A DNA stretch of 62,942 nt, filler included, from Hausera hauseri (taxonomy: Eukaryota), in assembly GCA_046269625.1 (NCBI GenBank). It is 13 parts of 13 records of this genome, joined end to end, with 100 filler letters (N's around TTAATTAATTAA, not from the genome) between each part and the next. Parts side by side here need not be neighbours in the genome. Positions count along the whole stretch, not along the records: positions 50,370 to 54,343 come from JBJURY010846302.1; 12 more parts are not named here. The stretch is one strand, 5' to 3'. The translations under genes and the position numbers were made by a program. Position 1 is the first letter of the stretch, and every line of letters begins with the position of its first letter. The notes beneath the pieces were generated by a model. It saw only the letters and a list, made by a program, of their open reading frames with translations, was not told the origin of the DNA and ran no database searches. Shown here one piece after another: positions 28,060 through 62,942 of the stretch.

Positions 28060-29338
28060 CTTTTGTCATCAAACGGGTCCAGTGCCTTCTTTGTGGTGCT
28101 GATCGTCATTAACGGGTGATTTTTTGTCCCGATACGCTCCTAATCAACAGTTGTCGAACATCCATTTTCATATGCCTGTTGATGGTTGGTAAACTCTAAG
28201 TGTGTTTGTTTCAGATTTATTCCTTTGCATTTGAGAACAGGTCTGCTTTGAGTTTTCAATGCATAACATTTTGGTATCAAGAAAATTGCCTCTTGATATT
28301 CAACACAACCCCCACTTTCATCCTAAAATTTTCCCATTATAGACGCGAAGCGAGTAGAGTAAAGCGTGTCGCTGATATCATAGTTGGGAGTGTCAAGTGT
28401 TCATTGGCTATCATTGCCGGCAAGAGCTGTTTTCACAATTCAACACCATGGCATTCGAGGAAGAAACTGTCCGTGTCACCAGCAATAATATTTAACTCAC
28501 AATTGAACTGTTGCCTGTAAGACTCCAATTCTATATAATTTAGCTCATGTATTCTCAACTTAGAAAGATCCATAACAACCTGTCCAATGCACAAGGGTCT
28601 ATCTAATGTAACAATGTCTTTATCTAGAAGAACGGCAACCAAATCATCGGCTACAGTAATACTTTGTTTAAACTGTGGCTTATTAGCATAAGTAATAAGC
28701 TTCTTAGCATTATTACAAAGTGTTACTTTTGACATTTTGAGAAGATTTTCAACTGTTTTGCCGTATAAGCTATTGTTCTTGAGCTCAAAGAAGTCCTTCT
28801 CAAAAAAATTAGTCGCTGCAGCCATCTTAGTCGTATTTAAATCGATTTAATACTTAAATATATAACCCTAGTCGAACTCAACAGCGCGATGAACCTTTTC
28901 AACTACAGCGCCTAACTCTGTACAACTGTAAGAGCCGATAATGATCAACATAGTTGGACTTACGCCGATGTGTCAGCAAGAATTTCTTTACTTTGGAATC
29001 AGGAGCTCATTGGTTGATTGGAACAAGAGACAGTTGGTCTAATTTATCGTGCTTGTCTGACTGGATGCTTAAATCAACCTCAAAGACTAAACCTCGTTTT
29101 TCTCAAACGTTATCAAGGAAGGGTAATAGCTCAAGCAGGCTGTTTAAATTTTCCTCATCATAAATCCGAGTCAAATTCGCAAATGACAAAGGTTGAGATA
29201 AATCCCAACCGTACAAAATTATTTACATCTATATACAAGAGACTGGTGCTTTCATCTGTTACAACCCTATGCTTATTTACAAAAGTCACCACCGCGAATA
29301 CCCGACTGAAAAATCTGTACATTTAAAGATCTTGAATA
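28060..29338 (-). pseudogene. Polinton protein-primed DNA polymerase B, C-terminal half
   Basis: LLYIDVNN (Pol A), KNNSLYGKTVENL (Pol B), IIAGDTDSFF (Pol C) and NDDQHH near the end. Frameshifted. Confidence 0.88.
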
Positions 29339-30249
29339 NNNNNNNNNNNNNNNNNNNNNNNNNNNNNNNNNNNNNNNNNNNNTTAATTAATTAANNNNNN
29401 NNNNNNNNNNNNNNNNNNNNNNNNNNNNNNNNNNNNNNTGTATTTATACTGAAATGTAACAAATAAATTATATTGATTCACGAAAACAAACTGAGCAAAA
29501 TAATACATATTTATGATTAAATACGGTCAATTAACTTTTTCATCACAATACAAAGCGATGCAGAAATTCAAGTCCAATGAGGAAATTAATCCGCTGTTGT
29601 TGTTGTTGTTTTTGCCTTATTTGATTCTCGATACGTTTTACGAAGAGCGATCTGACTATCAATTCAATATTACTGTACCAATAAAGTGCATGGCACTGGT
29701 AGTTGCCCTAGTGCAATGGAGCAATACTATGGCACCATAACGGTGCACAGTAAATGGGCCTGTATGTCCCGGTTGTTCTATAGCTGATGATTAAATCAAC
29801 TATGAACAATTTTATAATTAGCACCATGACCACTTAAACCAATTTAAGCGGTCGGAAAAACAATTATTACTGACCGCAGCAAAAAGCAGCAGCAGCAGCA
29901 GCAGCAGTATTCCCTCAACAAATAGGAAACGTCAGGCATCAACAAGCCTTGATGAATACATGCACAACAACAGAAATCAAAAATAGCAGAACAGTAGGAA
30001 CAGATGCAACACGGGGAGGAACCACTCTTTACTATTATGTACGGTCTGAAAAAATCATACTTGGATATAAGTGAACAAGTCAAGGACAACAACAACAACG
30101 CAATTGAGACATGTTCCATCCATTGTGCAAAACCGGTTGGAATCTGAAGTAGACAAATTCCAACACCACCACAACTGCAGAGTGCAGTATTATGCACTTG
30201 CAGAATTCGAAAACGTTCAAGGCGACAGGAAACAATGGTACCTGTAACA

Positions 30250-33206
30250 TCGAGCTTTACCATATACGGAGGATTTTATATCTGATATTGACGAAAAGCT
30301 CGAGGAGAAAATCTCCAACTACACGGAAACGGGTAGTGGATGGCGAACTGTAAAGATTGTCACTCTCGGAGTTCATTCGTACCGACAACTGCAGCTCTAA
30401 GCACTCAAAAACTGTAGTCAGTGTAGAAAATAATAGCGACTAATACTGTTTTTTTACAGTATTTTAGCCATATTAAAATATGACGAAGTGCCCAGAAATC
30501 GTGCATATCTTTCAAAAAAATATCGTCAGTATTTTTCCGAATTGGACTTTGATGAAAGCTGGATGCCGATGAAACTCAAAACCATTTCGGCTTTTGAACG
30601 GCGTAATCCGACACTGTCAGTCAACGTTTTTCGGTACAACTCAGTATTAGAGATACTGGCAGATGAGGAAATTTACAAAAATCCTGACGTGGATATAATC
30701 TATCGAAGTCGGAACCCTAATTGACGTCCAATATACTTGTTGCTGTTGGAACAGGCAGAAAAATTTTATTACGTGACATTATCAAATCTGGACAGACTAC
30801 TGAACATGGACCATGACCAATTTATCTAAAAACATACACTGCAAATAGTGCCCTATATGTTTTCATGGCTTCATATCAGAAGCGACATGAAAAAAACACG
30901 TGGCGCTATGCAAATGAAACGTATCGGGAACAACAATGTACGTCAAGGAGCTGAGATTTAGTGACTGGTCGAAAACGGATAGTCCTGCATATATGGTCTA
31001 TGCCAATATTGAAACAATTCTACCGCGGCACAACGTATACGACCAAAAGCACATTTCAATCGTCGTCGGTATGTGTCTAGTACCAATAGAAGCCATTGAA
31101 CAAGCGCAGTATTACATTTTTTACGGATGAAACTGTGTACATGATTTTCTGCACCGGTTGAAGGCAATAGTGAAAGCGGAAATCAAACCGTAGGATAGTA
31201 ACAACAGCACTAAGCCTTTGATCTGGACAGACGAAGACGAACACCTTACGTTTGCAGTCACAGATAAATGCTACCTGTGCCACAAAATATTACCATTTGA
31301 TGAACTGGAACAACTCGTGTCTGATCACGACCATTTTACCGGACGATACCTGGGAGCAGAATACAATTCATGCAATTTGACAAGGTGTGTGCGGCTATTC
31401 GTATCGGTGGTATTTCATAACTTTAGGGGTAATGATTGTCACCATGTTCTAAAATGGACCATTAATGGATTTCCACACTGGGAACTGTTTATAATCCCAA
31501 TAACGATGGAAAAATACCTGTCTCTGTCGGCAGGCATAAACCGGTTCCAGGTGCGAATCCTTGACTCATTACAGTTCCTCAATGAGTCTCTAGAAAAGCT
31601 GGTAAATGCCTTGCCGGGTATGCCGTTAACACCAACGCAGTTTCCGATGCATACTGCACGTAGCAAAGGCATATTCCCGTATGACTTTGCTGTATCGTAC
31701 GAGCGGCTTCAGACAACAGAGGAATTGCCGCCCCCGTGGCCCAGTATAACAGTAGATGAATATCGCACAGCACAGGATTATTGTTCAGCGCTCGGCTGCA
31801 GAAGCGTATTTGATTACATGCTCCAGTATCTGAAACTGGACGTGTACTTGCGGGCCGACGTGTTTCAGACATTTCGGACTAAGGTGTTGGCGGAAGATAG
31901 GCTGGAGCCGCTCAACTTTTACTCCATACTGAGAATGAGTTGGGTGTCGGCTTTGATATCATTGAAGCGGGACACTGAGCTGTTGCAAGACCCAGAAATA
32001 TACCGACTGTTTGATCGTGGTATTCGTGGCGGCATGACATTTGTCAACAATATTGTCTGGAGGCAATATTGGAAAATTTATCGAGAGCAGACACGACAGA
32101 AAACAGCTCATTCGGCTACTTGATGGAAGTTGATCTCGTGGTACCGGATAAGTTGCATGACGCTTTGGACCAATTGCCTGTCGCACCAATCAGTCAATAT
32201 CCGCTCGGCGGTTCAAAGGTGAAGAAACTCGTCATGACGCATGAACCGAAGTCGAATTACATGGTCCATTGGCGTCTGCTAAGTTCTACATACAGCTCTG
32301 AGTACACGTCACACAGCTGCATTGCGAAATCTAATTCAATCAGGCTCCGATAATAAAGGCATACATTGACGGAAATTCAGAAAAATGAGCCGAAAAGTTC
32401 AAAAAAGACTATTACAAGTTGAGAAATAATTATCTCTACGGCAAAACAGTAGAGAACCTAAAATGCGACTCAGTGTGCGTCTATGTAACTGGGAAAAGTG
32501 GCTGGTTGAGTTCACGAGTAAGGCGAAATTTCGGCGGTCAATGTACATTGCCAAAGGATTGGTTGCGGTGTTGTTAAAGAGAGAAGAAGTCGTACTGGAC
32601 CGGCCAAGTTACATCGGACAAGTGGTATTCGATTTGAGAAATTTGCGGATGTACGAGCTGCAGTATCGCGATTTCACACATTACCGGCAAATGTTCGATG
32701 GCTGTGATATAAGTATCGTTGCAAGTGACACAGACAGCTTTTTCCTTTAGCTGAGAAACGTCAATCGCGACCAACTGCTCCGGTAAATGATAGCAGATGG
32801 ATTACTGGATACGTCAAATTACCCACAGAATCATCCGCTGTATAGCAACGCCATAACAAACAAAATCGGCTGCTTCAAAGATGAAAGTGAAGGCCGTGTT
32901 CAGTACCGAGAATGGATATTCCTGCGTCTCCTGACGGACTGTGGACCGAAAGTGCGCGAAAAAGGCGTTCAGCTGTCCCAGACGGAAATAAACCATGGTG
33001 ATTATCGCCATACCTCTGAAGCAGCAGCAGCAGAAGAAGAAAATGGAGGACGACAAGGAGGACAATCAATGACTGTGTTTCAAGCGAACATACGATCGAT
33101 TGAGCACCAGTTGTATAGTATTACAAACACAAAAATCGATTTATCATGTAATGATGATAAGCGAAAATGGGTGGGGCGAAATAAGAGTTGGGCGTATGGG
33201 AATTAG
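30250..33206 (+). pseudogene. Polinton/adintovirus pPolB with endonuclease-VII-like insert, near full length and decayed
   Basis: ETGSGW, CYLC..DHDHFTGRYLGA..SCNL (endo VII-like), HNFRGND (ExoII), SKGIFPYD, YLKLDV (ExoIII), GIRGG, LYGKTVEN, SDTDSFF, DTSNYP and DDKRKW..SWAYG. Many frameshifts. Confidence 0.92.
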
Positions 33207-33545
33207 CGTTTAAAACAACACACACACGTGATTCCTTATGTGTTCCGACGATTCGAGGCAGACAGTTACAGTCATTTGTACATTTTGACAATTACTGATA
33301 TCTTGTGATTTTATTGCTTATTGTTGTTATATCACAATAATGTATTTTTGTTCACTGACTTTTTTCTTTTTGTTTTATATAGTTATTTAATTTTCTTTAT
33401 ATTAAATGATGACTAAGAAAACGGTAGTTATAATTAAATTTTAATNNNNNNNNNNNNNNNNNNNNNNNNNNNNNNNNNNNNNNNNNNNNTTAATTAATTA
33501 ANNNNNNNNNNNNNNNNNNNNNNNNNNNNNNNNNNNNNNNNNNNN

Positions 33546-36245: not shown

Positions 36246-37173
36246 GATACACAAGAGTTTATTTTGTATGGAAAATAATGATTGTCTTATAATAATAATA
36301 ATGATATATGAACCGGATTTAAATTAAGAAGCTTCCGAAATTAGGACACCTTTGCAAAAATTCACCAATTTTTAAAGTTAAATGTCCAATAATCAGCCTT
36401 TTTCAAAGAATTCACATGCCTGATTCGTTCATACAACCCTTAATGTCACACTATTTTCGTCAGATAAGAAATATTTAAATAACAATCAAAAATCATACTA
36501 ATACCATTCCGATACAGTAAACAATTAAATGAAATAAATACAAACTTAGCCCCATTTAGCCTCTGTAATTTAACCGATAATACATTTACCTATAAACATA
36601 TAGAATTAATTCATTTAAGCTTTTATATGAATCTGTGTATTTCCCAAATATAAAACTAATCAATAATTATTCAAAATAACCTAGATTTATATTACATATT
36701 ATCAAACTTTTTGCATAAAAATCTATATAGCATGCGTTAATTAATATACACATGCAAATAATTTATTTTACTTTCGTCCTAAGAATGGAGAACGCAAATA
36801 AAATAATGAAATGCAAATCATCTGTTCGAGGTGTCAAACAATTAATATCTAACAACTATGTCCAATTGGGTTTGGTGAGTTTTGTATTAAACTTACTATT
36901 ATTTTCTAAAAATCAAATGGTAGGGTTGAAGTGATTGATATATGAATTAACATGAATTAGAATTTTTACATTATAATTGGAAGAGTTCTCAAAGCAAATA
37001 ATATAGCCATATAGTATTAAAATATTTACAAACATTTATATTCATTTCATAACTTACATTTACTCCGTTATTGCATTTTTTAAACAAAGCTTTACATAAC
37101 TTTGCTGCCTTTTTATCTCTACTTATTATTCATGTTACTATTTTGTATTAAATTTTAGAGTATAAATTTTCAA

Positions 37174-38842
37174 ATGAATGATGTTTTTAGTATGTTGAAA
37201 ATTTACCATTTACAATTTTTGTCCGATGTTCATGATAGTTTGAAATGCAAAATTTGCAAAAATGTGTTGATTGACTCATGCTTCTCTCCATGTGGTTGTA
37301 AATTTTGCTGGAAATGTATTACAGATTATCTTGGTGGTGAAACGAAAAAATGTCCCGGTGACAACGAAGAGTGTTTCGAATCTCTGTTAAATATTACCGA
37401 TAACATCAGAAGAGATGTAAGCAGAAACATTGAAATTTCGTGTTTAGCGGTACGCTGTCCGAATCATAATTGTGATCACAGTTGTCAGTTGCGCAAACTA
37501 TCCGAACATATGCGACTATGTCAAAAGGACGTTGAGGATTGCGTGTTTTCTTCCGTCGGTTGTTGTGATCAGACGGTAACTGCTGGAGATGTCGGAATGA
37601 AAGAGCATTTGGATGTTTGTTCGGTTAGCCATGCAAAGATTTTGGTGGCGTACATGAAAAATATTACGAATGAGATGAAACAACAAATGGAAACGTTTGT
37701 TTTGCATCAAGTAATTTAGTTTTTGTTTGTCCGGTCAATGAAAGAATTTCGTGTTTATTAGATATTGTTTTAGTTTTCTTATGTTGTTTCTGATGGATTT
37801 AGGAAAAACAGGCAACTGCTGTACAGCAATTGACCGAAGAGAAAGCAAAAATATGTGAAGATCTATTGATTAGTCGAGTAGAGTTTGTTGGTAGTTAAAA
37901 TAAGATATTTTTTGCAGGATAATGTGTCGAGACTGAAACAGCGGCTTGATGAAATGGAAAGGAAACAGGTAGACAAAATGCGATACTTGCTGGGTTATGT
38001 GGTACTTTAGGCTGCTACTAACTTGCAAATACAATCTTTACAGTTTCTGGTGAAACGGAATGACAGTAGCACGATAACTGTAATGGGACGAGGTCGAAAT
38101 AGACAGGTGATACATGAAATGCGGATGAACTATAAAGGTATTTAGAATATAAATGATAATCAAGAAAACAGACAAATAAAACGTAAGAAAACCATAGCTC
38201 ACGTGTTCAGAAATCAGCAGGTACAAGTATCCAGTTTAAGTTTTATTGATTTGGTTTAGAGTACGTCACATGCAAATGTGGGTTTGTCTACACCAACTGA
38301 TGAATGTGTGTGTGTGTGACGTTAAGTCAACACGGCTGCCTCTACAACCATTGGATCAGTCATTCGGTCAGAAATCTGGTGCGTCGACAAATAAGTCATT
38401 TCAGTGGCGCATTAACAATATCAAAGAGATTTATGAGAATTTCAAATGGGTAGAAAGTGAACCGTTTTTCAGTGACGGTCCAACGGAAGGATATAAAATG
38501 TGTTTGGAATTCAATTTGGATAAAAATTACGGTGTCACGTTGGCATTTCGATTGTTACCCGGTCCCAATGATGATCTGTTAAAGTGGCCAATGCATCGGA
38601 TCGTTCAAATTGGCATCGTTGATCAGAAATCGGCACGGCTCGTCGTATCGGGACAATTCAGTCTAGCAACAACGAACCAGCGTTGTTATTCGTATGCTAC
38701 CAGAGCCGCGTACAACAGACCAACCGGTGACAGATCGTCGTCTGATGGATACAATTACTGTTTCTCGTGCAATGAATTGTTTAACAAAAAAGGTGCTGTC
38801 ACCAATGACTCCATAGTGGTGCAGTGTCGTGTGTTGCCATAG
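37174..38842 (+). CDS. TRAF-family gene (RING, TRAF zinc finger, coiled coil, MATH), 7 exons, about 444 aa
   Basis: Exons 37174-37710, 37803-37877, 37918-37968, 38044-38106, 38146-38220, 38260-38277 and 38327-38842 are all GT-AG, phase 0 and splice into an open frame; the middle exons are less certain. RING CKIC..PCGCKFCWKC..CPG and MATH FQWRI..SEPFF..GYKMCL..GPNDDLLKWP..NDSIVVQC. Confidence 0.85.
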
Positions 38843-46960: not shown

Positions 46961-47196
46961 TGTTATATGTTGGGTATGTTTGCACGAGCATGGAACTTTC
47001 ATCGGCATCAAACGGGCATGCCTAACGTCTTCTAAAAGTGAATATTACGGTGGTCTGACAGTCCCAGAACTGTCTGCATCTGTATTAGTTACGCTTCATA
47101 GGAATCACATGCGTGAGTATGAGTGATTATCTCTTTTATCTGATATTTTTGGCTAATGTGGCCCATTTGACTCCTTCTGCGTTATTGTATTAATAA

Positions 47197-47520
47197 ATGT
47201 TTTGTTGAAAATATCCATCTTCTTCATTGACTCGGAAGGATTTGTGAATAATAATAATGAGTACATGATTAAGGAGTTGTGCATAATACCTTTGGATAAT
47301 GTTTAATCCACTACATTATTTATTTGAATAAGTGAATTTAGTATTGTAGATGTAATATGCGTAAGTGCAATTTAGACCCCTAATACATTGTTGCGCAGAA
47401 AAGGCACAAATTACAAATGCATGTCTAATGCAGCATCATCATAAATTGTCGTGGGAAGAATGTAATACAAAGTTTTGCAGAGACTGCATAATGCGAGACA
47501 TTGAGCCTTAACCTATATAG
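47197..47520 (+). pseudogene. Polinton-associated DEDD-exonuclease-like gene remnant
   Basis: FFIDSEGF...YMIKELCI...HYLF...HHKLSWEE resembles the IDxxGF..IKEL..HH.L.W gene common in Polintons. It converges on the pPolB fragment. Confidence 0.45.
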
Positions 47521-47629: not shown

Positions 47630-48311
47630 TCATAAAAGTGAAATATGTCCATGGGGCAAGGTGGAAATGCCACCACCTAATATATGCCTTTTGTCGTCTA
47701 TTCAATCTAGACTTCTTTTGTGGATCTTGACTGTTTGATTCTCATGAGCCTAAAGTTGGATGCGATTCATCTCTGATATAACGTGACTATAACCCCTCAG
47801 AACTGTCACATGGTCTTCGCAGTTGATTTTTTTTGGCTAATGTAGCCCTTTGAACTCCTTTTGCGCGCTTTTTCACTTGGCCAATAACACGATTGCATAC
47901 ATTTTGGAGCTATGTGCCACGAATCGAAATATGATTTTCCCATCCATCTCATCTGTGAACTTCCCGAGGACCGTCTTATTTGTTACAGAATAATTTCTGT
48001 AATCTTTCGGATAGTGGGAAGTTTCCATACGCTTAACCAATTTTGCAAAGTCGACAAATATGTCATGAGTATGAATCTGATACATGAAGGAATCAGTGTC
48101 CATATATATTAGCTGTAACTCCTTGAATGTTGCGACCATGATAATATATTGAAAATCAAACATCAAGGTCTTCGATAGGTCTAATATCAATATGTTAACA
48201 TAAATTTGCTTACTGAACTCCAAATATGTTTTAAGCATATGAACAGTGACCAGATTTTTACGGTTTATTATGCACATATATGCCGTGGAAGTTCGACGTC
48301 GCTATGAGCTT
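47630..48311 (-). pseudogene. pPolB C-terminal fragment interrupted by the AGTAG repeat
   Basis: KLIATSNF, ILDLSKTLM, YMDTDSF, ETSHYP, LGKFTDE, SKMYA, KRAKGV and DDKRHIL..TLPHGH. Confidence 0.88.
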
Positions 48312-50369: not shown

Positions 50370-50564
50370 AGTCTTGTTGTACGTTATTTTCATACTACCT
50401 TTCAATGTCACCGGTGCGTAGGGAAAGTTAAATTCCATCAGTGCAACCTCCCATTGTCCAGATAAATCCAAAGGATTGCTCCAATCTACAACGTATTCAT
50501 TGGTTGAATTGTTCGGATGAGTAGTCGGACAACTGTTGCTCGGCAAGACCATGTAAATACTCAA
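50370..50564 (-). CDS. Polinton minor capsid (penton-like) protein, N-terminus, truncated at contig end
   Basis: IYMVLPSNS..HPNNSTNEYVV..PLDLSGQWEVALMEF is the typical Polinton mCP N-terminus. The start codon is TTG. Confidence 0.8.
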
Positions 50565-50607
50565 TCTCGATGATGATGATGATAATGATGAAGCAGTTTG
50601 TTTATTA

Positions 50608-51655
50608 TCAACGACGACGAAAATGTAGCATCAAATGTTTAGTGGCTCCAAACAGAAATTTAATGGGTTCCAAAATTCTTCTACTATATACACGGAAATA
50701 TTGCACAACATTGTGAGAAAATAATAAATACATGGGCCGGATGATATTTACGTGAGTAGTTTAGTCTGGTGTTTTTACGTGTCCGAATCCAGTTAAATAG
50801 AAGCCTATAGTTGTTTACGGTCTCCACCAATATATACGGGTTCAGTTAGATCCGTTCAAATATTGATTCGATGAAATGCTGCGTAGACGTGGTTTGTGTT
50901 TAGTAACAATGGTCCGTCTGCCGCCGGTTTGACCAATTTCTCGTTTCCTAAAAAGCAGATTCCGTGCCAATAGTTCATCAAAGGCAAAATATGTAAAATT
51001 ATCATGTAGTGTAAACGAAATACGACCATCACAGTTTAAATCAAATGTCTTGAGAGCCAATTTAGCTACAACCTTGATGGATGAGCACAATTCTGTTTCC
51101 GTTTCCGTAAGAAAATCAGTTCCTGTTGTATGAGAGTAAAAGAATGATTCAGTCTTTTGCCAGTTCACTGTAATATCGGTGGTTTTCATGGTGTTTTCGG
51201 AAAAGTTCAATTTTTCACTAATTATACTCTATCCACCGAGTTGTAGACCTTTCGAGCGCACATTGACAGACTGAAGACCCCATGCCTGAGCGTCAGATAG
51301 TGATTTAAATTGCAATTCAATCGTATATTTGTGTTTTAGTACCAATCGATTGTTTAAATGAAAAACAAACCTCGAAATATTGCCGCTTGTTATTGCGAAC
51401 GTGAAATGTTCCATTAAAGTCTCGGACTAACTGCAAACGACTAGATGCAGGAGATTGTCTTACTAGGGTATAGTATATTCCACTGTTACGTATTATTATT
51501 GGTGAAAATATAAACGTGAATTCCGCTAAAGCCACTTCCTAGGCTCCCTGGCGTAAGTCGAGCGGCTGGTCCAACGCCATGGTAAACCGTTCAGCTGTAT
51601 TGTTGTTGTCATGTTCTGATAATTTATTACTATCAAGTACCAAATAAATGCTCAT
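50608..51655 (-). pseudogene. Second Polinton minor capsid (penton-like) gene, decayed
   Basis: MSIYLVLDSN..NNTAERFTMALDQPLDLRQGA*EVALAEFTF at the N-terminus and PVYIGGD...IKFLFG..MLHFRRR* at the C-terminus. Its ATG overlaps the upstream TGA (TGATG). Confidence 0.72.
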
Positions 51656-52500
51656 CACTCAATGCGATGGAAATATCCAACTCGGTGCAGTGTATCTGTG
51701 CCACTTGACGAGATATTGTTTATTCGAACCTTTGCCGCGTGGATGTAGAATCTACTGAATACGATACACATCAGGTTTTTCCGGTAGTACTTGTAGTTCC
51801 TGTTAGTAAAATTTGCCACGTATTTCGTCACCATTTTCATCTAAAACGTACATAACAGGTGTTTGTTTTGTGTTGATTGCTGAAATTCGGAAAACCTCGT
51901 CACTCCAGTTCTGATTGAAATTCTTAATGAATGGTGTACTCAGCTTTGAAATACGTACATAATCACTGATTTTATACTTGGGACGTTTAGTTGGTAGTCG
52001 TCGTTTTGTTCAGGTTTGGTAAAGCCACATGTCCAAATCATCGATTACATCCACTGGCCGTAATAATATCCGGCCGTAATAATAAGACCGCTGCAACGTA
52101 GGCATTGTAGTATTCGTTACCAAAATCCGTTTGAAAATGCTTCGGTTGTTGTTGTTGCATCAGTGTGAACGGCGTCGGAAATCTCTACCTGATTTAGATT
52201 TCACAGCAATTGCACGTGCAATACGACTGAACACATCAATGCATGTCAGCACGTACCGATACCCATCGTTAATGCTGGCGTACGGAATCATTTCCGTCAG
52301 ATCCATTTGCCATACGTTATTTACACCGGCAGCACAGTATGCATGAGTTGGAAACCGCCTTATCGGTTTGTTTAGGCTGTATGATAACTGTTTCCCGAGC
52401 CAACGTTGGGTCTGTTGCCGATTCTGTTTGACAATCTTTGTCAGTTTGTCGACGACAGTATACCCGACGGGATGACGCGAATCGAACCACGTCACCCATC
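51655..52500 (-). pseudogene. Polinton retroviral-like integrase
   Basis: YSLNKPIRRFP, WQMDLTEM..NDGYRYVLTCIDVFSR..VKSKSG, QTDFGNEY and FIKNFNQNWSDEVF. Frameshifts and a deletion. Confidence 0.88.
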
Positions 52501-52659
52501 GTTTCCGTCGGTGTTGTCGATGGTGTCGGTTTTGCTTTCATTACAACAATTTTAACGAAACCTAAATGAAAGATTCGGTAAACTGGGACAAAATGATGAA
52601 AACCAGGCACCCATATAGTAAATCACTATATACTTACCGTCATTGTTTATGCTATGCTG

Positions 52660-52970
52660 CTGAAGAACCAGAGTCTACCTAGTAATCACGTGACAAGCGG
52701 TAGAATTGCACCAAGGAATCCTCTGTCTTGTAAATGACCTCTCGTTTCAATCGTTTACTACGAATGTTGGAAAGGCCAATGAGTCGTTTTCGATACTTTA
52801 GTAAATTCCGCTTCGTACTATCAATGTCAACGTGACCCACAACGATATTGTATAAAATTTCCATCAAATTGTCTACTACAAACTGCGGGAATGATCGCAG
52901 CATGTTTCGCTTGTCTCGTAGGTGCATTGAGCAAAGCAATAATATATGGCTGACTACGCTTGAATCGCAT
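52660..52970 (-). pseudogene. Small basic conserved Polinton/adintovirus protein
   Basis: MRFKRSQPYIIALL..KRNML..VVDNLMEILYNIVVGHVDI..LLKYRKRLIGL..KREVIY matches the small Polinton gene usually found next to ATPase/integrase. Frameshifted. Confidence 0.55.
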
Positions 52971-53203
52971 TTCTTTTTTTGGACGTATTGGTGCTGATGA
53001 GACGTAATTGTTTATAACCGTTGCCACTGACTGTAATTTGCATCTAGTTGCTGCTGCTGTTGTTCGTAGCATAGAATTGATTAATCGCTTGAATGTAGCG
53101 GTGGTTCGTTTTGATACACGTTTCTTGCCACTGGACACCTGCTTGGTAGTAGATTGTTTACGTTTAACAATTGTTTTTCGGAAATTATTTTGTTTTATCA
53201 TAA

Positions 53204-53855
53204 TCATGTCGTCGATTTTCGAATTTGTTTATAGACACATTTCTGATTGAAAATGTCTGTTTGTACACGCATGTCATCGGGACACTTGCGTAAAGTTAGT
53301 GAACAATTATCCGTGTAGCTCGGTCGTGGCATCTTGATAGTTATCTATCAAGTAGGCTCGATTGTGAGGAAATGCTTGTCTTGCAACATAACCAATGATA
53401 GTCTGATCACGGGGATTTTTGAACAACACCAAATAGTGTACGTTAAGATTTTGTGTTCGATGCTGTTCGCCCTGATGGAACATGTTTTGCGTAATGAAAA
53501 TAACTGTCACACTACCGTGCCGTGCAATCTTCGTGAACAGATTGTTGAAGTCGGTTTGTATCATTGCCTCTTGAAGTAGTCCATGACAGTAACGCCACCG
53601 TTGCGTAATCGTTCAGACCAGTTCTCATCAAACCCATCAATTACCGTTTATAAAATTCCCAATGTGTCAAACCAGACTCTCCATCATCACCACTGCCTTG
53701 ATGCCAGTAAATGTGATTGAACAGCGGCGATTGGAATGTCACGGTAGTTCTGCAGCAATTTGCAAATAAAGTGCGTTTTGCCACTTCCACGGGCCTACAA
53801 TCTGGAAAATGGCACTATTCTTCAGCTTTATGTTGGTGATGCATTTCTCATACAT
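53204..53855 (-). pseudogene. Polinton FtsK/A32-like DNA packaging ATPase
   Basis: IFQIVGP/GSGKTHFI (frameshifted Walker A) and LFTKIARHGSVTVIFITQNMF..NVHYLVLFKNPRD. Confidence 0.88.
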
Positions 53856-53906
53856 TTTGTTTATAACACATACAAATGGGTGCAGCATGAACACTTTCAA
53901 TCAATC

Positions 53907-54323
53907 ATGATAGCCAATATCAACTTCTGCTGATATGTTACTTAGTGTATTATGCACTGCCGTTTAATCAATGGAAGCCGAGGCAGTATATCCACAAATG
54001 TCCACATGCATAATATTTCCATCGGGAAAGTGTCATATTATGGGTTGTCGGAAACCAATCACAAATGATAGACATCTACCATTCGGAATTGTCATTGACT
54101 AAATTCAATCAATAACGGTAACGACTCAGATTGCTCATCACCACCACCATCAATTAATCTGCACAAATTAGAAATGGCTACCGAATGTATTTATCAGCCC
54201 GAACTGTTTTGTGTAAATGTTTTGAGCAGTGGAAAAATTGTCGTATTGGGGATTCGTTCAATCAACAGAGACGACTATTAATCAAATTAAACACCACATA
54301 AGTGTTTTACTGAATCAAAGTAA
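53907..54323 (+). pseudogene. Miniature TBP-like gene (copy 2), divergent from the Polinton ATPase
   Basis: MIANINF..PFNQWKPRQY / IIFPSGKCHIMGCRKP..IQSITV / INLHKL..CIYQPELFCVNVLSSGKIVVLGI, homologous to 61449-61887. Stops and frameshifts. Confidence 0.72.
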
Positions 54324-54775
54324 TATACTCTGGCCAATGGACTNNNNNNNNNNNNNNNNNNNNNNNNNNNNNNNNNNNNNNNNNNNNTTAATTAATTAAN
54401 NNNNNNNNNNNNNNNNNNNNNNNNNNNNNNNNNNNNNNNNNNNAAATAATAATATGAATGTGGGTGTTTGTGCTAAAATACTTAGTTCATTAAAGACTTG
54501 AACAGAGGTAAGATAAGGATGTGTTTCATATTTTGTGGTCAGTATTCGTTTAGAGCTCGTAGCGTTAACATGTAGAATAGTCTTAGTGCATTGTTGCGAA
54601 ATAGTTAGTTGCTTAGTTTACAGTTTCGTAGTTTAGTGTTTTATAAGACGTAGACACTTTTAGTGCGTGTTTTAATGAATTAAATATCATCTGTGTTTAA
54701 TAACTATCTAAAAGCAATGTAAATAAATTCCTTGTTAGTAGTGACCTACTTCGGCGGCAGGCCAATAAACTCAGC

Positions 54776-56275
54776 ATGTCGTTTCTCATTCCTGAGTTTG
54801 AAGATGAGGATATAAATCCAAATACAAGTAAGAATTTTAGTTCAAATAGAGATATGGGTTCTCCAGATATAAATTTGGAAAATATAAGTAGTAATATGCT
54901 TAGAACTACGCTAGAGCAAATCCTCTTCAATGGGCTGAAGGAAGCACAGGAGAAACTGTCTCTAGCTGAAAATAATAATGCTAGTCTTAAAGTTCAGATA
55001 GAAGAACTTAATAAGCGGCTTTTTCTCTTAGAACAAAAGTCCGCCTCCAGTTCTAAAATACTTTCTGGCCCTTTAACACAAGAGCAAGAATGCTCCGATT
55101 TAAATAGTAAACGTAAAGAGGCTATGAATAAGGAGTTTTACACTGATGAGGAAGATTTAGAAAAAGAAACCGCATGGGTAAGAGCAGAGAGGAGGAAAGG
55201 TAAAAAAAGAAGGAAGACATCATCATCGTCTCCAGAACAACAATCTGTTTCGTTTACTTTAATACCAAATAACAATGCGGAAACTAGAAATAAAAACCAG
55301 GTGCAGAAGAAAAATCCTACACCACCCCCAATTATAGTAGAAGGAATTAATTCTTACTCCCAATTAAGAAAAATATTAGGAGAGTCTGAAACTGATTACC
55401 GAATTTCACTTATGTCTGGAGAGAAATTCAAAATAAATCCAGTAGATGGTGAAAAATACAGAGGAATTATTAAGAAATTGCAAGAAAACAACATACATGG
55501 ACATACATACGAAAATAAACAAGATCGCTCTATTAAGGTAATGGCTAAAAAATTACATCGATCTTGCGCACCTGAAGACATTATTAGAGACCTGAAAATA
55601 AAAGGTTATAAAATCATTGGAGCGGTAAATAAACAAAGTTGGAAAACTAAAGAAAAATTAGACATGTTTATCCTTGAATTCAATAATTCTGAAGATATTA
55701 AAAAAATCTATCAGATAAAAAACATATTAAATATGAAAGTTGAAATACATTCGTTGAAAGTAAATACCTTAATACCCCAGTGCAAAAACTGCCAGGGATA
55801 CGGACATACACAACGATTCTGCTTCCGAGATCCGAGATGCGTGAAATGTACTGGAAAACACCATTCCAAGGATTGTACAAAGAATGATAAAGATCAGGCG
55901 AAGTGTGTGCATTGTGGTGAAGCACATCCTGCTAATTATCGGGGGTGTATAGTAGCTAGAGAACTACAAAAAATGAGGCAAAAGCCCAACAAAATACAAA
56001 CAGAGGTGAGAAAAAATATGCCTGAAGTGAAACAGGGTAGTGCGACTCATATTAAAGTTTTCAATCCAGAAAGTCAACCGAAATCTTTTGCTGATATACT
56101 TAAAAGTAAAAACACTGAGAGGATATCAACAAGAGGTGAGGTAACGGAAATATCTACAGAGGATAAACTTCAACTTATCTTGTATGGACTGGAGAAAACA
56201 GAAACAGCTATCAGTAAATTGAATGAAAGAATTGTAAAGCTTGAAAAATCTATTCTTAAAGGTAACAATGGCTGA
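54776..56275 (+). CDS. Jockey-clade LINE ORF1 (gag-like nucleic-acid chaperone)
   Basis: PPPIIV, pre-C2HC region and three knuckles: QCKNCQGYGHTQRFC, CVKCTGKHHSKDC and CVHCGEAHPANYRGC. Confidence 0.93.
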   Translation: MSFLIPEFEDEDINPNTSKNFSSNRDMGSPDINLENISSNMLRTTLEQILFNGLKEAQEKLSLAENNNASLKVQIEELNKRLFLLEQKSASSSKILSGPLTQEQECSDLNSKRKEAMNKEFYTDEEDLEKETAWVRAERRKGKKRRKTSSSSPEQQSVSFTLIPNNNAETRNKNQVQKKNPTPPPIIVEGINSYSQLRKILGESETDYRISLMSGEKFKINPVDGEKYRGIIKKLQENNIHGHTYENKQDRSIKVMAKKLHRSCAPEDIIRDLKIKGYKIIGAVNKQSWKTKEKLDMFILEFNNSEDIKKIYQIKNILNMKVEIHSLKVNTLIPQCKNCQGYGHTQRFCFRDPRCVKCTGKHHSKDCTKNDKDQAKCVHCGEAHPANYRGCIVARELQKMRQKPNKIQTEVRKNMPEVKQGSATHIKVFNPESQPKSFADILKSKNTERISTRGEVTEISTEDKLQLILYGLEKTETAISKLNERIVKLEKSILKGNNG

Positions 56276-58767
56276 TATCAGAATATTACAGTGGAATGCT
56301 AACGGATTGTTGCGGAGACGAGAAGAACTGCAGTATACACTTGATTTAAATAAAATAGATATAGGGCTAATCTCAGAAACCCACTTCACAAAACAATCAT
56401 TTGTTAAATTTAATGGTTACAAGGTCTATCATGCGATACATCCAGATAACTGTGCCAAAGGAGGTAGTGCAGTAATAATTAAAGAAGGTATATGTCACAA
56501 CGAAGAAGAAAAATATGAAACGGAGGAGATTCAGGCGGCAGTGGTAACAATAAAAAGTAAACATCAAATGATAACGGTCGTTTCTGCATACTTTCCTCCA
56601 AGGCACTCTTTAAAGAAAAATCAATATAGTAATTTCCTTAAAAAGTTTGGAAACAAATTTATTGTTGGAGCTGACTTCAACGCCAAACATGTCAGTTGGG
56701 GATCAAGGATAACTACAGCGAAAGGAAAAGAGTTACATGCAGCTGCAACCGAGATGGGATGTTACTTTGTATCTACAGGAAGACCTACATACTGGCCAAC
56801 GGATACTAATAAAATTCCCGATTTATTGGACTTTTTTATTATAAAAAAAGTAGATATCAATTATCTAAGAGTTGAGGAAAGTTATGATCTCAGCTCGGAT
56901 CATTCGCCCATCATTCTGACAATAAGTGATAAGATCATAATGAAAGAGCAAAATCCGTTTTTAGTTAACAAGCGTACAGACTGGACTATATTTAAACAAC
57001 TTCTCGGAGATAATATCAACCTTAGAGTACCTTTACAAACAGAAGATCAACTGGATTATGAATTAGAAATGTTCATTACAAATATACAAAAAGCAGCCTG
57101 GGAGAGCACTTCTCCTATAAAAAGAGTAACAGAAGGAAAAAATTATCCAAAAGAAATTAGAAATATCATTGCAATTAAAAGAAAACTTAGAAAGCGGTGG
57201 CAACAGACTCGTGATCCCCGTGATAAAACTATTCTTAACAATATTACTCAGAGGTTACGAAGAGAAATAAAGATAATTAAAGAAGAATCTGTGAGTTTGT
57301 ATCTGGAACAACTTTCACATGAAAAAATTACTAATTATTCTCTTTGGAAACCTTTAAAAAAAATGAAAATGCCAATAATGCAAATGCCGCCGATAAATGA
57401 TGGTGATGGAAATTGGGCCCGGAGTAATGAACAAAAGGCAAAAACATTTGCTTGTTATCTTGAAAAAACTTTCCAACCGCATGAACAACTGGAAGGAGAG
57501 CTAGATTCAGAGTATGAAGAATACGATACAGTTTTAAAATTAACCACTCCAAATGAAGTCAGTAAGGAAATCAAAAACAACTTTAGCTGTCGTAAAGCAC
57601 CTGGCTATGATTTAATAACCGGAGAAATTTTAAAACAACTACCAAGAAAAGCAATAGTAAAGCTGACTTATATTATTAATGCTGTTTTCAGACTAAAATA
57701 CGTACCTTCACTTTGGAAAGTTGCAGAGATAATAATGGTGCCGAAACCCGGTAAACCTCCGAATGAAACAAGTTCCTACAGACCCATATCACTGTTGCCA
57801 GCTATGAGTAAGCTGTTCGAAAAAATTCTTCTAAAGCGGCTTAAACCAATTATAAGTGAGAAAGAATTGATACCTCATCATCAGTTTGGATTTAGATGCA
57901 ACCATTCAACTATTGACCAGGTGCATCGCATTACGGATGTAATTGAAACTACACTAGAAGAAGGAAACGTCTGTTCAGCTATGTTTTTGGATGTAGCCCA
58001 AGCATTTGATAAAGTATGGCATGAGGGCCTGATATATAAGATCAGGAAACTGCTACCTAGATCTTTTAGTAGAATCCTTCAATCTTATATATCGGATAGG
58101 TTCTTCAGAGTTAAGTATGAGGATGAATATTCAGATTTAAGACAGATAAAAGCTGGCGTACCACAGGGAAGCGTACTGGGTCCTACCCTTTATTTATTAT
58201 ATACTAGTGATATTCCATCACTTAATGATAGGACAATTGCAACGTTCGCTGATGATACTGCTATTTTAGCCGTGGGTAAAAATAGTGAAGAAGCAACGTC
58301 TAAACTTCAGGATTCAATCAACAAAATTGAAAACTGGACTAAGACTTGGAGGATTAAACTTAACGAAAATAAATCAGTTCATGTAAACTTTACTAATAAG
58401 AAAATAGAATACAAACCAGTATATATCAATGGGATGCCAGCACCTTATTCTAATACAGCTAAGTATTTGGGTATGACGCTGGATGCCAAGCTACGATGGA
58501 AGGAACATGTAAAGAAGAAACGGAAAGAACTTGACATCAAATACAAAGCCATGTATTGGCTCATGGGTAGAAAATCTGCATTATCTACCTATAATAAATT
58601 ACTATTATATAAACAAGTACTTAAACCGATCTGGACCTATGGAATTCAGCTTTGGGGCTGCACCAGACCGAGCAATGTAAAAATTATTCAAAGATTCCAG
58701 AACAAAGTACTAAGGAATGTCGTCGATGCTCCTTGGTACATACGAAATGACAACCTACATCGAGACC
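56268..58767 (+). CDS. Jockey-clade LINE ORF2 (AP endonuclease plus reverse transcriptase), intact to the contig end
   Basis: WNANGL, ISETHF, GADFNAKH and SSDH (APE). YRPISLL, QFGFR, LDVAQAFDKVWH, GVPQGSVLGP, FADD and YLG (RT). The ATG overlaps the ORF1 end. Confidence 0.95.
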
Positions 58768-58867: not shown

Positions 58868-59225
58868 TCGAGAAACTCCCGATTACGCCAAAACTGTCAT
58901 TTTTGAAGGCTAAGAATTCACAAACACTGTGTGCCAAAGACAAAACGACAGTCATTCCCAGAAGATAAGGATTCGTGTCGAACAATGTTTTCTTTAGAGT
59001 ATCCTGTTCCTCATAGGATTCCTGAATCATATTCTCACCAAATACGCCACTGTACCATTTCGGCCGCGTTGTTTGAGCAGCATACTGCAACTTGAACAGA
59101 GAATTTGGTGAGAAAACAAGGTTTAATGGTAATTCTGTTGATGTTTCATTCAATGCTAAATAATCCTGTGCAAGATTCCAATAATCGTTCAGAAATATGA
59201 TTGGATAATATCTCATTTCTGACAT
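58868..59225 (-). pseudogene. CLPTM1: Intronless CLPTM1-like fragment
   Basis: YYPIIFLNDYWNLAQDY..NET..LPL, EEQDTLK..DTNPYLL and HSVCEFLAFKND, then a frameshift to QFWRNREFLE. Confidence 0.8.
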
Positions 59226-60101
59226 CATTTGTTTATTTTGTATAATGGGAATAAAATCCGAATGAGAATAAAATCCAAGAATAAAATCCACAACGAGAAG
59301 TAATACACGAAATTTATTTTTCAAAATTAAAAAAGAATTCAATATTTACAATAATGTATATTCTGAAAATGAGATGCTTTCGTAAACTTCATAAAACAAC
59401 ATGTTTTAACAATGTTCCACATAAATCGAACTCAGGTCAACCGTTATTTGCTTACAAGTAAATTCAAAAAGAGGAAACAAATCTAAACAAACAACAAAAA
59501 CTATAGTTTGCTTTGATATTTTTACGATAATTTAACTCACAAATACGTCGCTACCTTTCAAAATGTTTATTTGGAATATTTTCAATAATTATCTGAAAAT
59601 GCAACATTTACACTCCTTCATTTCCATTCGCAAAATATTCATCGTTTTCGGTACGTAGTGGGTTATCGACTGAACAGTCGTGAAAAACTGAAAATCGTAG
59701 CAATTTGTTGAGGTATTCAATTCCAATTGAACAGGAGAATCTGGGGAAAAGAGTTTCTCTGATTATGTAATCAGTGTGAACCAATTTCAAAAACGTAAAG
59801 ACACACGATCGAGAATTCAATATATAAAATTTAAGAACATTCCGAGGGAAATTCGAATTAATGGATTCAAAAAAAATATTCTGTGTTGAACTAACAGTTT
59901 TAGAATCTTTACTACTAAGTTTTCTATCTTGTTCATCATTGATTTGTCTTATTTAATCATGGCTACAAACCTTTCTCAATAAATGATCTTGTGGTAATTG
60001 TTTCTTTAATTTTCGTATCTATTTTGTTCAGAACCACGGCAATATGAATACAATCTTTTTATGGGGGGCCAATATCAATTTTGGTAAATCATTAACGATA
60101 T

Positions 60102-60983
60102 CTATTTGCAAAATATCTTGAACACATCCCTACGGTAGTTAAATGTCAGAAAGCAGATTATATTCCAGGTGAAAAAGGTTTCAGTGGACAAATTATCAAT
60201 GATACACTGCTTGCAATAATAGATTTCGTTTTTATCAATATTTTCACACTGTATATCACTTTTGTGATTGCCATAATGGGAACGATGATGTGTACATTGA
60301 CTAGAACATATTTCACAAACAGTAGTACATCTGTACCATGTCTTTGGTATGTCTAAACGCATGTTCTTGATATCTGTTTGACAGTTTATACACGCCTCAA
60401 TACATGAAAACATATCATTCAAAGAATGAGGATTTCCCCATTGAAACACCTCATTCAGTATCGATAAGATATCGTCTTTAGAATCAATCGCAATAGTTGG
60501 ATGATTATTGTTGTCGATCATAACGGAATTGTCGATGACGTTTGAATTGATAATCAAAACGTCATATTCGTATAACAACAGTTTTATGTGTGAATTTAAT
60601 TCCCGAGTTGTTTTGTATACTTTACTGCAATGTGTACATCGGTACAGATTCAAATTATCAGTATGCTGCATTCGGACATGCCTACTCAATGATGAAACCG
60701 AAATAAACTGCTGTTGGCATGCTATACAAACGAGATATCCATCGGTTCGCTTATCTCGACAACCGTTTTCATGGGTTTTCGAATGAGCCCAAAGAGACAA
60801 TTTCGCCGAAAATGCTCCATGGAAAACGTTAAAAATGAAATCTTTTTGAATTCTATGATCCACTCGAACGTGTTGAATCAATTCTTCAGAATTTTTCAAT
60901 TCTTTGTCGCAATTCGCGCAACCGTGATAGAAAAACGATTGTTGTGTGGATTTTTTATAACGACTAACGATCATCGCTTCATC
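60102..60983 (-). pseudogene. C2H2 zinc-finger protein with a Cys/His-rich C-terminal region
   Basis: CANC..HVRVDH, CIAC..HVRMQH and CTHC..H fingers, plus CEICSSQCTHH..H..H. Some fingers are damaged. Confidence 0.6.
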
Positions 60984-61448
60984 TGCTGGTTTTAAAAAGT
61001 GAAGCGTAATTTATAGTTTTCATTTGTTGATCAGTTAGGTTTTTGATGTAAAATCCACATTTGCTTTTTCGGATATTCACATTTCTCAAAGTTACTTTTG
61101 TCCATCTTTTCAACATATGGATATTGTTGGCTCATTAAATGGATCATCATCATCATTATCGTCAAACAAAATCACTGTTTCTTCCTGTTTGTTTACTTCT
61201 AAAATATATGTGTAATTATATTAAAAATTGGAAATTAAACAAACTTTTTGGTGTTGAAGCTATAGTTGGACAATCCACAAAACCGTATTGTGGAATTGGA
61301 TGCTGTTGTTGATACCCATAGTGTCCAAACATACTAGACTGGTATGACGGGAAATGCGAATAAGACATTTTAAGAAATGAAATGTTCTGAGGAAACATCA
61401 GTATTTATACTTTTTCATTCGAAAATCAACCAATCAGAATGCTCTGAG

Positions 61449-61887
61449 TCATATTGAAAGTAAAATGTATAATGAAATTGTATCAAGTATATGCTCATAG
61501 TCTAATGACTTTATTCCGGGATTAACAATTTTTCCTGTATGAAAAACATTAACATAGCGGATTGAATTCAGTTAGGCGTAATGCTGGAAATAATTCTGGT
61601 TCATATGAACATAGGACTTTTTGTGCCAAGTCATTCAGATTGATATTTTCATTCAGATTCATACATATAGTTAGAGACTGAAGTTTTTTTATTTTGATAT
61701 TTAGCGGTAAATCAGATTTCTCAATGGGTTTCTTACAACCCATAATACGACAACTGCCGCTTGGGAACATGACGATGTTGTAATCAGCATAATTAAGAAT
61801 ACACTGTCTTGGTTTCCATTCATTAAAATGGAGATATTGGACATTTTTTGCATCGTTATGCGCCTTATAATTAATATTAACTAACAT
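61449..61887 (-). pseudogene. Miniature TATA-binding-protein-like gene (copy 1), about 145 codons, frameshift near the 3' end
   Basis: VNINYK (TBP IQNIVST), MFPSGSCRIMGCK (IFSSGKMVCTGAK), INLNDLA (IRLEGL), SYEPELFPAL (SYEPELFPGL) and, after the frameshift, VNVFHTGKIV (IFVSGKVV). Confidence 0.78.
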
Positions 61888-61911
61888 TTTTAAAATGTCA
61901 CACTCATACCT

Positions 61912-61942
61912 CTATTTATATTTATTTTCAACAAATCAGAAT
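61912..61942 (-). promoter_or_regulatory. TATA box plus CCAAT-like element upstream of the TBP-like gene
   Basis: Minus-strand TATAAATAG about 25 nt before the ATG. TCAACAAATCAGAAT (61928-61942) nearly matches TCAACCAATCAGAAT (61426-61440), which lies upstream of the next ORF's TATA box. Confidence 0.5.
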
Positions 61943-62069
61943 ATAAACAAATTAATATATAAACAAAGTAATTCAGTTGAAAAGAAATAAAATGGATCAC
62001 TGCATTCGAGTTGATACTAATGAAAACGGTAAGGTTCCATATTGAATATTGAATATTGAATATTGATTT

Positions 62070-62790
62070 CCAATCCTGGGGGTCCGACATAGGATATTTA
62101 TATTGGCCCAGTGTGCTCACATCCCCTACTCAGATTACCCAAAATTTTATGCTAAATTTACCTGGCTCGATAGGCATATATTGTAAAAAGCTGCACCGAC
62201 ATTTTGTTAAAAACAATTGTTCATCTATGGTTACAAAACCGTGAGGAAAATAACATTTTTGACAATTGTTTATATCCTGCTCCCACACATCTCGAATAGC
62301 GTAAAACTTGTTACCCTGTTTTTTCTTGCATATGAAAATTTATTATCGAATCGCCAATATTGCTCAATGCACTGAAATATAGTTCAACTCATGGTATCAG
62401 TAAATATTGGTCTTCCATACTTCTTGACCCAAAATTTTACAAGTGGTTCATTTTTACCCTTCCGGACGCCCCTTTAAAGCGACAAACCAAAATAAGCTTT
62501 AAGTTCATCAACTGTCAGGCTGAAACGTTCATTATTTTGAACTATAGATACTGCTACAGTAAACTTAACGATACTGAAGAGGTTCTTATAATCAAATAAC
62601 GCAAGAAATACGTCTTCAACATCCTTCACTCTTGCCAGAATAAAACGTATGGGATCACCGTTTTCCGGAACCATATTGTGCACTGGAACTCTTCCAACAC
62701 AATTGCGGATTGACGGGTGCTTTGACCATTCATTTCCATATTTCCGTCTATAAATCATGAGATTATGAAATGGATTTGGAATTCATATTC
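62070..62790 (-). pseudogene. piggyBac (PGBD4-like) transposase, N-terminal half, decayed
   Basis: DELKAYFGL..GVRKGKNE..W..YGRPIF..TMS, RFDNK and FYAIRDVWE..NCQKCY..VTIDEQL..CRCSFLQYMP.EPGKFSIKFW. Confidence 0.85.
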
Positions 62791-62828
62791 TTAATATCAA
62801 AGGTGGAGCAGTACTTGAATCACTGCCT

Positions 62829-62942
62829 AGTAGGGGAAAAATACCGCTTCTGGCTCAACCCCCCCGGGGGGGGGTTGGATCGATAAATCGATTTGCACAT
62901 GTGCCGATCGATAGAGCACCCGGAACACTATCGATCCATAAA
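62829..62942 (+). mobile_element. AGTAG-type repeat (copy C), start only
   Basis: AGTAGGGGAAAAAT..., a GC palindrome AACCCCCCCGGGGGGGGTT, then tcgataaatcgatttgcacatgtgccgat as in copies A and B. Confidence 0.72.

Follow-up and report, generated by a model that had tools for sequence, protein, structure and literature searches.

A Polinton-borne family of minimal TBP homologues and a candidate late-promoter box

Two broken genes in the window, a 62,942-nucleotide stretch of Hausera hauseri DNA, belong to a family of TBP homologues of about 145-185 amino acids that is linked to the core genes of Polintons. We consider it probable that the product of this family, here called mini-TBP, is an early-gene product that acts as a late-transcription factor, reading the box TATAAACA and recruiting host TFIIB and Pol II in the manner of ORF24 and BcRF1. 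The grounds for this are the TBP fold and family, the linkage to Polintons, a set of conserved residues and the uneven distribution of the box over virion and TBP-like genes; the binding, partner and timing of mini-TBP we infer. The window consists of 13 unplaced, repeat-rich contigs joined by artificial N44-TTAATTAATTAA-N44 linkers, and order across the linkers carries no meaning. The presence of LINE, gypsy-like, Mutator, piggyBac and TRAF sequences suggests an animal-type genome.

A broken Polinton block and two TBP-like genes

The Polinton genes of contig 11 form a block on the minus strand (Table 1). The first-pass annotation had described it as two minor capsid genes, an integrase, one small gene and the packaging ATPase; this order stands, except that two small genes rather than one lie between integrase and ATPase. 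One of them, C8, which may be cupiennin/PW-like, has the same place between ATPase and integrase in relatives. The longer capsid-associated gene is presumably a minor capsid gene, a name we gave it from its position and from Polinton penton N-termini. The ATPase N-terminus of relatives aligns near 53834, and these relatives match Pfam Pox_A32 above cut-off. Contig 11 carries no major capsid, PolB or protease gene and ends before the capsid position.

The divergent TBP-like ORF that the same annotation had placed beside the ATPase start is present, its ATG at 53907 (+) standing head-to-head with the ATG of the ATPase frame at 53855 (-) across 51 nt. The order of its pieces agrees with the family profile, in that residue 1 falls at 53907 (rank 2 of 125,832 windows) and residues 37, 95 and 112 at 54004, 54192 and 54210; two of the pieces match the family HMM with E 4.9e-9 and 1.2e-9. 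Placement of this copy rests on the family profile, the Pfam TBP match being weak (E 0.055, 13.8 bits, one frame). The copy is identical to the relative P0005 at 52 of 100 positions, with three breaks, and about 11 codons are missing in frame behind the stirrup; a profile search of contig 11 did not find the C-terminal helix. Broken in this way, it would give no working protein.

The gene is as decayed as its neighbours, which the first-pass annotation had also claimed. Its 100 aligned codons contain 3 breaks, compared with 6 in 201 for the ATPase, 5-6 in 266-277 for the integrase, 2-3 in 98-103 for C8 and 9-10 in 313-326 for the minor capsid gene; the neighbours range from 1.8 to 3.8 breaks per 100 codons, and the TBP-like gene falls inside this range. 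Two public sequencing runs, X1 and X2, cover 30 of 30 bins of contig 11, and one contig from X2, a run that looks independent, spans 53748-53973 and so bridges the junction between ATPase and TBP-like gene. Run X1, which may be the source sample, gives 23,455 pieces on contig 11; the depth gives no copy number, and the abundance of pieces indicates a many-copy family in related DNA.

Table 1 Features of contigs 11 and 13, in positions of the window
Feature	Position	Strand	Basis or remark
Contig 11	50370-54343		
Second putative minor capsid gene, 5' part, truncated by contig end	50370..50564	-	HMM E 5e-26
Putative minor capsid gene, broken	50611..51682	-	Family HMM and alignment
rve integrase, broken	51670..52520	-	Pfam rve E 1.2e-5
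C8 small gene, broken	52680..52970	-	HMM E 1e-20
TATAAACA box, C8 gene	53009..53016	-	First ATG 46 nt downstream
Small basic ORF, possible core protein	53017..53207	-	Sequence
A32/FtsK-type packaging ATPase, broken	53207..53855	-	158/201 identical to P0356, 6 breaks
TATAAACA box, small basic ORF	53226..53233	-	First ATG 26 nt downstream
TATAAACA box, ATPase	53858..53865	-	About 30 nt upstream of relatives' start
TBP-like gene, broken, short subtype	53907..54323	+	End uncertain, possibly up to contig end 54343
Contig 13	58868-62942		
C1-family piece	60982..61131	-	HMM E 1.3e-4 (3189 pieces of the window searched)
Second TBP-like gene, one frameshift in 145 codons	61452..61887	-	Pfam TBP E 1.2e-7
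Two TATAAACA boxes, directed away from the second TBP-like gene	61942..61965	+	ATG 34 nt after second

Contig 13 holds the second, divergent TBP homologue that had been proposed there. It scores 31.9 bits against Pfam PF00352, above the curated cut-off of 22.9, and is identical to the intact relative P0001 at 115 of 145 positions; pieces of the two window copies are 50-55% identical to each other, with about 68% identity over 105 nt. The contig is tied to the Polinton family only indirectly, by a C1 piece; in relatives no other family accompanies the TBP-like gene as often as C1 does (19 of 48 loci). C1 may be an OB-fold ssDNA-binding protein, and the accessory family C2 may have a DnaQ/MAEL-type domain.

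Several other features surround this second copy. At 61942-62340, the two TATAAACA boxes are followed by a short ORF and a relic of a piggyBac-type transposase (Pfam DDE_Tnp_1_7, 62133-62339), which seems to be an interrupted second head-to-head layout. Below the gene, 60105-61404 (-) contains, in addition to the C1 piece, a short ORF led by TATAAATA and a C2H2 zinc-finger frame of 302 aa; the three may be parts of a single accessory cassette, spliced or broken. The same contig carries a host-type CLPTM1 fragment at 58869-59345 (-) (Pfam E 5.6e-33).

Elsewhere in the window, three more broken pPolB relics of Polinton type occur in contigs 6, 7 and 10 (28011-29337 (-), 30179-33218 (+) and 47639-48259 (-)), and contig 10 also has C2 pieces at 47157-47508 (+). 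Contig 4 contains an open Mutator-like transposase of 599 codons (18095-19894 (-), Pfam E 2e-69), and contig 12 a LINE-type retrotransposon with two long open frames, read from the translation (54704-58767 (+)). A-rich, gag-like frames in contig 1 (369-6215 (+)) and a RING-containing region in contig 5 (21160-22643 (+)) have little Pfam cover and are retroelement-like. Contig 8 carries a TRAF-like gene with RING, zf-TRAF and MATH domains in two frames (37159-38842 (+)) and a TATAAACA sequence at 36591; TRAF on MELD viruses is listed in the legends of Starrett 2021 (PMC8502044).

A family of short TBP homologues linked to Polinton genes

With the contig-13 piece as query, 63 of 66 candidates proved to be relatives, most of them 144-165 aa long. 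A profile built from 58 of them matched 61 cluster representatives at E ≤ 1e-30; at 1e-10 the number was 661 and took in ordinary TBPs, at least two of which stand among the best 150. All family members that were looked up come from metagenomic or run assemblies, and intact relatives match Pfam TBP with 63-65 bits. Genomic context was drawn from 48 loci of one metagenome scan, most of them partial, which fall into 30 groups at 85% identity and cover the short subtype only.

Polinton core genes accompany the TBP-like gene repeatedly, so the linkage proposed at first pass holds. A core gene is present in 14 of the 48 loci and in 11 of the 17 that exceed 3 kb; among the others, 22 share accessory families with core-gene loci and 12 have neither, 11 of these being under 2.1 kb. 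Core genes were called by Pfam (Pox_A32, rve, Peptidase_C5), by a match to the DNA_pol_B_2 piece of the window and, for the capsid, by fold. The rve integrase is found by Pfam in the window and in relatives, adenain protease in L021, L024, L032 and L035 (Peptidase_C5), and family C19 of L008, L013 and L023 matches the window piece with Pfam DNA_pol_B_2 (protein-primed PolB). The major capsid is represented in six loci by a linked 403-aa protein modelled as a double jelly-roll, with Z 16.3 to a PBCV-1 capsid chain; the pLDDT of the model is 58.7, and 14 of its 14 top matches are jelly-roll capsid or scaffold chains (Z 8.1-16.3). No terminal inverted repeats or target-site duplications were found in L008, L013 and contigs 11 and 13, all of which are partial. 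The head-to-head order of contig 11 was considered as a conserved feature and rejected, since in eight of the nine loci with both genes the TBP-like gene and the ATPase are on one strand.

Judged from sequence, the gene is under purifying selection in relatives: the median dN/dS among intact members is 0.26, with values below 0.5 in 115 of 116 usable pairs (of 595; the pairs are not independent). No relative of the TBP-like gene, ATPase or capsid was found among IMG/VR viral contigs; GTDB genomes gave no relative of the TBP-like gene and one ATPase candidate, and an Atlas search returned generic TBP clusters only and nothing for C1.

The loci also carry accessory host-like genes, among them ubiquitin E2, dual-specificity phosphatase, RING and leucine-rich-repeat (LRR) types (L008:225-719, L015:4008-4316, L040:1710-2168, L023:1918-3327, L041:2303-3109, L043:1307-1843); the LRR genes lie behind TATAAACA in three of three cases. 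Ahead of ORFs of families C4, C1 and C12 (L013:1502-2135, L014, L015, L019, L029, L038) are AT-rich stretches with GT...AG ends, suggesting from sequence that these may be spliced early genes; vertebrate Mavericks are reported to lack introns (PMC8097293). By raw count, the sequence TGACGTCA occurs in 9 of the 48 loci, and p53-type tandem sites in none of the 48.

The AlphaFold model of P0001 has a pLDDT of 95.8 and aligns with human TBP 164-336 over 146 of 146 residues (Z 13.6, rmsd 2.4 Å). According to this model, mini-TBP is a two-repeat saddle with both lobes present, about 27 residues shorter. Residues, among them the DNA-contact positions, were compared between 174 family rows and 27 canonical rows in yeast numbering, and the numbering offset was confirmed on the structural alignment to human TBP. 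Mini-TBP shares with cellular TBP (eukaryotic and archaeal; PF00352) the full-length two-repeat saddle, three DNA-kinking phenylalanines (F116 99%, F190 99%, F207 100%), P191 (90%), N69 (95%) and the acidic C-terminal stirrup (E186 90%, E188 99%, L/I189 94%). It is unlike cellular TBP in the length of the short subtype, in the loss of the fourth kinking phenylalanine, F99, where the family has no Phe column, and in its cut-back N-lobe helices, the H2 segment measuring 20 residues in the short subtype (n=115), 27 in a further 57 rows and 32 canonically. Helix H2 binds host regulators, for example Mot1 and TAF1.

The DNA face is polar and basic, unlike that of cellular TBP, and the gene sits on a mobile element. 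Swaps at V122R (99%), T124M (99%), L205N (99%), N159S/T (100%) and V161T/S (99%) are fixed, corresponding to R47, M49, N114, S/T71 and T/S73 of P0001; V71N (78%), I194R (76%) and V203C (78%) reach 92-95% in the short subtype. The phosphate contacts R105 and R196 are poorly kept. Neither the canonical hydrophobic DNA face nor a full N-lobe H2 is found in the family, and mini-TBP is a TBP-family member, not a canonical TBP. The altered-specificity mutant TBPm3 is described as changing I194, V203 and L205, and the N-lobe of TBP as contacting the box in its 3' half, a place at which C is disfavoured (PMC1636458). TFIIB is said to make its main contact with the glutamate that corresponds to E188 (PMC10005294).

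These residues bear on a different role, that of a decoy in which mini-TBP binds host TFIIB (or NC2) through its stirrup and damps host transcription, the reader of TATAAACA being host TBP or some other factor of the host. Few parts of the protein are as well conserved as the stirrup, and one kinking phenylalanine and several phosphate contacts are lost, as a decoy would allow; a pure decoy would have no need of near-invariant, non-canonical residues on the DNA face, and we give it a minor share of the probability.

A longer subtype, P0118-P0204 (about 155-190 aa), branches basally to the short one; its N-lobe helices are less reduced, and the same swaps are found on its DNA face.

In the tree of 94 rows, which has no TRF2/TLF row, the 68 family rows form a single, long-branched clade (100/100), separate from the other 26 rows, which are TBPs from cells, viral contigs and archaea; both window copies lie inside the short subtype (98/98). 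A smaller tree joins the family to the viral-contig TBP L050 at 87/65, with a long-branch warning. A recent retrocopy of host TBP or TRF, or a chance insertion beside a Polinton, would be consistent with the sister-group tests, in which neither a grouping with animal TBP (p-AU 0.17) nor one with archaeal TBP (p-AU 0.335) is rejected, and with a tree that contains no TRF2 row. Nesting within host TBP, which the first-pass annotation had named as one of two outcomes that would overturn it, did not occur among these rows. The structural identity of the P0001 model to cellular TBPs is 19-25%, and a recent host copy is contradicted by the clade and its long branch, the repeated Polinton linkage, the selection seen in dN/dS and a decay equal to that of the neighbours. 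We regard it as hardly credible; an ancient capture of the gene from a host is conceivable.

The TATAAACA box and a proposed late-gene factor

The box TATAAACA was first spotted by eye upstream of virion genes and then counted on the very same loci, where it is the most over-represented non-repeat 8-mer of the TBP-bearing loci (64 observed versus 21 expected). Enrichment is limited to the T-led form, the A/G/C-ATAAACA variants being at expectation. Forkhead-type readers recognise RYAAAYA; this restriction disfavours the idea that the motif is a forkhead site, and a decoy that leaves the box to a forkhead-type reader fits poorly for the same reason. Of 64 sites, 31 lie 25-60 nt ahead of an ORF start, a distance that holds 3.1% of positions. 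The relaxed form TATAAAC[A/G] occurs within 110 nt ahead of 27 of 33 virion or packaging gene-by-group cases versus 0 of 29 TBP-like genes (Fisher p 4e-12, which overstates independence, the 48 loci being 30 related groups). Four C10 matches, at 98-99 nt, are distant from the ORF start.

The TBP-like genes have a different upstream signal. TATAWAD stands 25-60 nt ahead of 12 of 31 of them, compared with a shuffled mean of 4.7 and with 1 of 1000 shuffles as high; the other 19 have none at this distance.

The window provides a held-out check for the motif, with three intact boxes ahead of the ATPase, small basic and C8 ORFs of contig 11 and none ahead of its integrase or minor capsid genes. The box counts come from TBP-bearing loci, and it may be that host factors read TATAAACA as a box common to Polintons in general.

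Our preferred sequence of events, in which mini-TBP is a late factor, would run as follows. The TBP-like gene would be transcribed early by the host machinery from an ordinary TATA box. Mini-TBP would then bind TATAAACA ahead of packaging and capsid genes, the three retained phenylalanines bending the DNA. Cellular TBP disfavours C at box position 7; the fixed polar residues of the mini-TBP DNA face would change specificity such that C is accepted there. The retained acidic stirrup would dock host TFIIB and bring Pol II to the late genes. The trimmed N-terminal lobe may free mini-TBP from host TBP regulators of the Mot1 and TAF1 type, which is a guess.

Rather than selecting late promoters, mini-TBP might boost all AT-rich viral promoters or serve outside promoters, at termini or an origin in replication or packaging, the box split then being a host-driven early/late code. 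Such a general role would agree with boxes ahead of non-virion genes (LRR 3/3, C2 5/8, C7 2/4); of the protease genes just 2 of 4 have the box ahead of them, and of the integrase genes 1 of 5. The position of the TBP-like gene, near the ATPase in nine loci and after the protease and C2 elsewhere, would fit it as well. The absence of boxes before the family's own gene (0 of 29) together with the kept TFIIB stirrup indicates promoter-selective initiation, and we judge a general role unlikely. Our data speak more for a late factor that selects its promoters than for a general basal one. The first-pass proposal of a Polinton lineage with its own basal transcription factor or TBP mimic is accordingly retained as to a Polinton-borne TBP family and revised as to function, from general basal to late and promoter-specific.

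The partner could also be encoded by the element itself, as a viral TFIIB-like or other protein that takes the place of host TFIIB. Several conserved neighbours have no assigned family and leave room for one, set against which no Pfam TFIIB match occurs in the 160 of 264 ORFs covered from the 48 loci, most of them partial; we consider an element-encoded partner quite improbable and host TFIIB the better candidate for the late factor.

Relation to known systems

The herpesvirus TBP mimics (KSHV ORF24, EBV BcRF1, HCMV UL87) serve as a model for how mini-TBP might work, its binding being a prediction. They are large, multi-domain proteins of a six-factor complex with four phenylalanines and no TFIIB glutamates, whereas mini-TBP is a stand-alone protein of about 150 aa that keeps the TFIIB glutamates and is not a member of their group. 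KSHV ORF24 is described as having a polar DNA face, acting at TATTWAA late promoters with host Pol II, and lacking the TFIIB glutamates (10.1101/2025.08.25.672222). Foldseek matches to the BcRF1 and UL87 models are weak (E 8e-3 and 2e-2), and the parallel is likely to be convergent.

TBP homologues of Nucleocytoviricota are alike in being virus-encoded proteins with a TBP fold; they are no closer to mini-TBP than cellular TBP is, the best viral structural match being that of Heterosigma akashiwo virus (E 2e-8, 19% identity). Many nucleocytoviruses encode their own RNA polymerase; Pfam found no RNA polymerase genes among the ORFs scanned in TBP-bearing loci.

The elements themselves resemble Polintons, Mavericks and adintoviruses in pPolB, rve integrase, A32 ATPase, adenain protease and double jelly-roll capsid (PMC8502044, PMC8097293). 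TBP is not among the eight core genes listed for vertebrate Polintons (PMC8097293). It is absent from section 3.2 and the text labels of Fig. S2 in Starrett 2021, and a 'TBP' label in the figure legends of that paper is the only print mention found (PMC8502044). Terms for TBP or TATA gave nothing in PMC11161782, PMC8097293, 10.1101/2023.08.22.554363, 10.64898/2026.06.19.733378 and 10.64898/2026.10.13.758929, and nothing relevant in PMC12220804, PMC11640650 and PMC10675990. The TATAAACA box is not mentioned in the literature searched, and figures, supplements, Repbase or subscription journals may describe it; likewise, look-up by term in these papers found no prior analysis of the TBP-like gene or the box, which figures, supplements, Repbase or subscription journals may contain.

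We see a somewhat better than even chance that a large lineage of animal Polintons has its own early-to-late switch, built on the smallest two-lobed TBP described (about 146 aa), with altered specificity, acting through TATAAACA and host TFIIB and Pol II and arisen independently of the herpesvirus mimics. The window copy, on a contig of 4 kb, is no more than a dead remnant, and its worth rests in the family that it marks. Mini-TBP is a natural minimal TBP, probably of altered specificity, and would be useful for finding the TBP surfaces essential to initiation. To our knowledge, Polinton gene expression is largely undescribed and particle production is in question. An element-borne TBP, with a box to match it upstream of capsid and packaging genes, offers a cheap and direct way to probe for a late-gene programme and, if the proposed switch is true, would reveal a regulated programme of virion building in elements that are commonly regarded as transposons.
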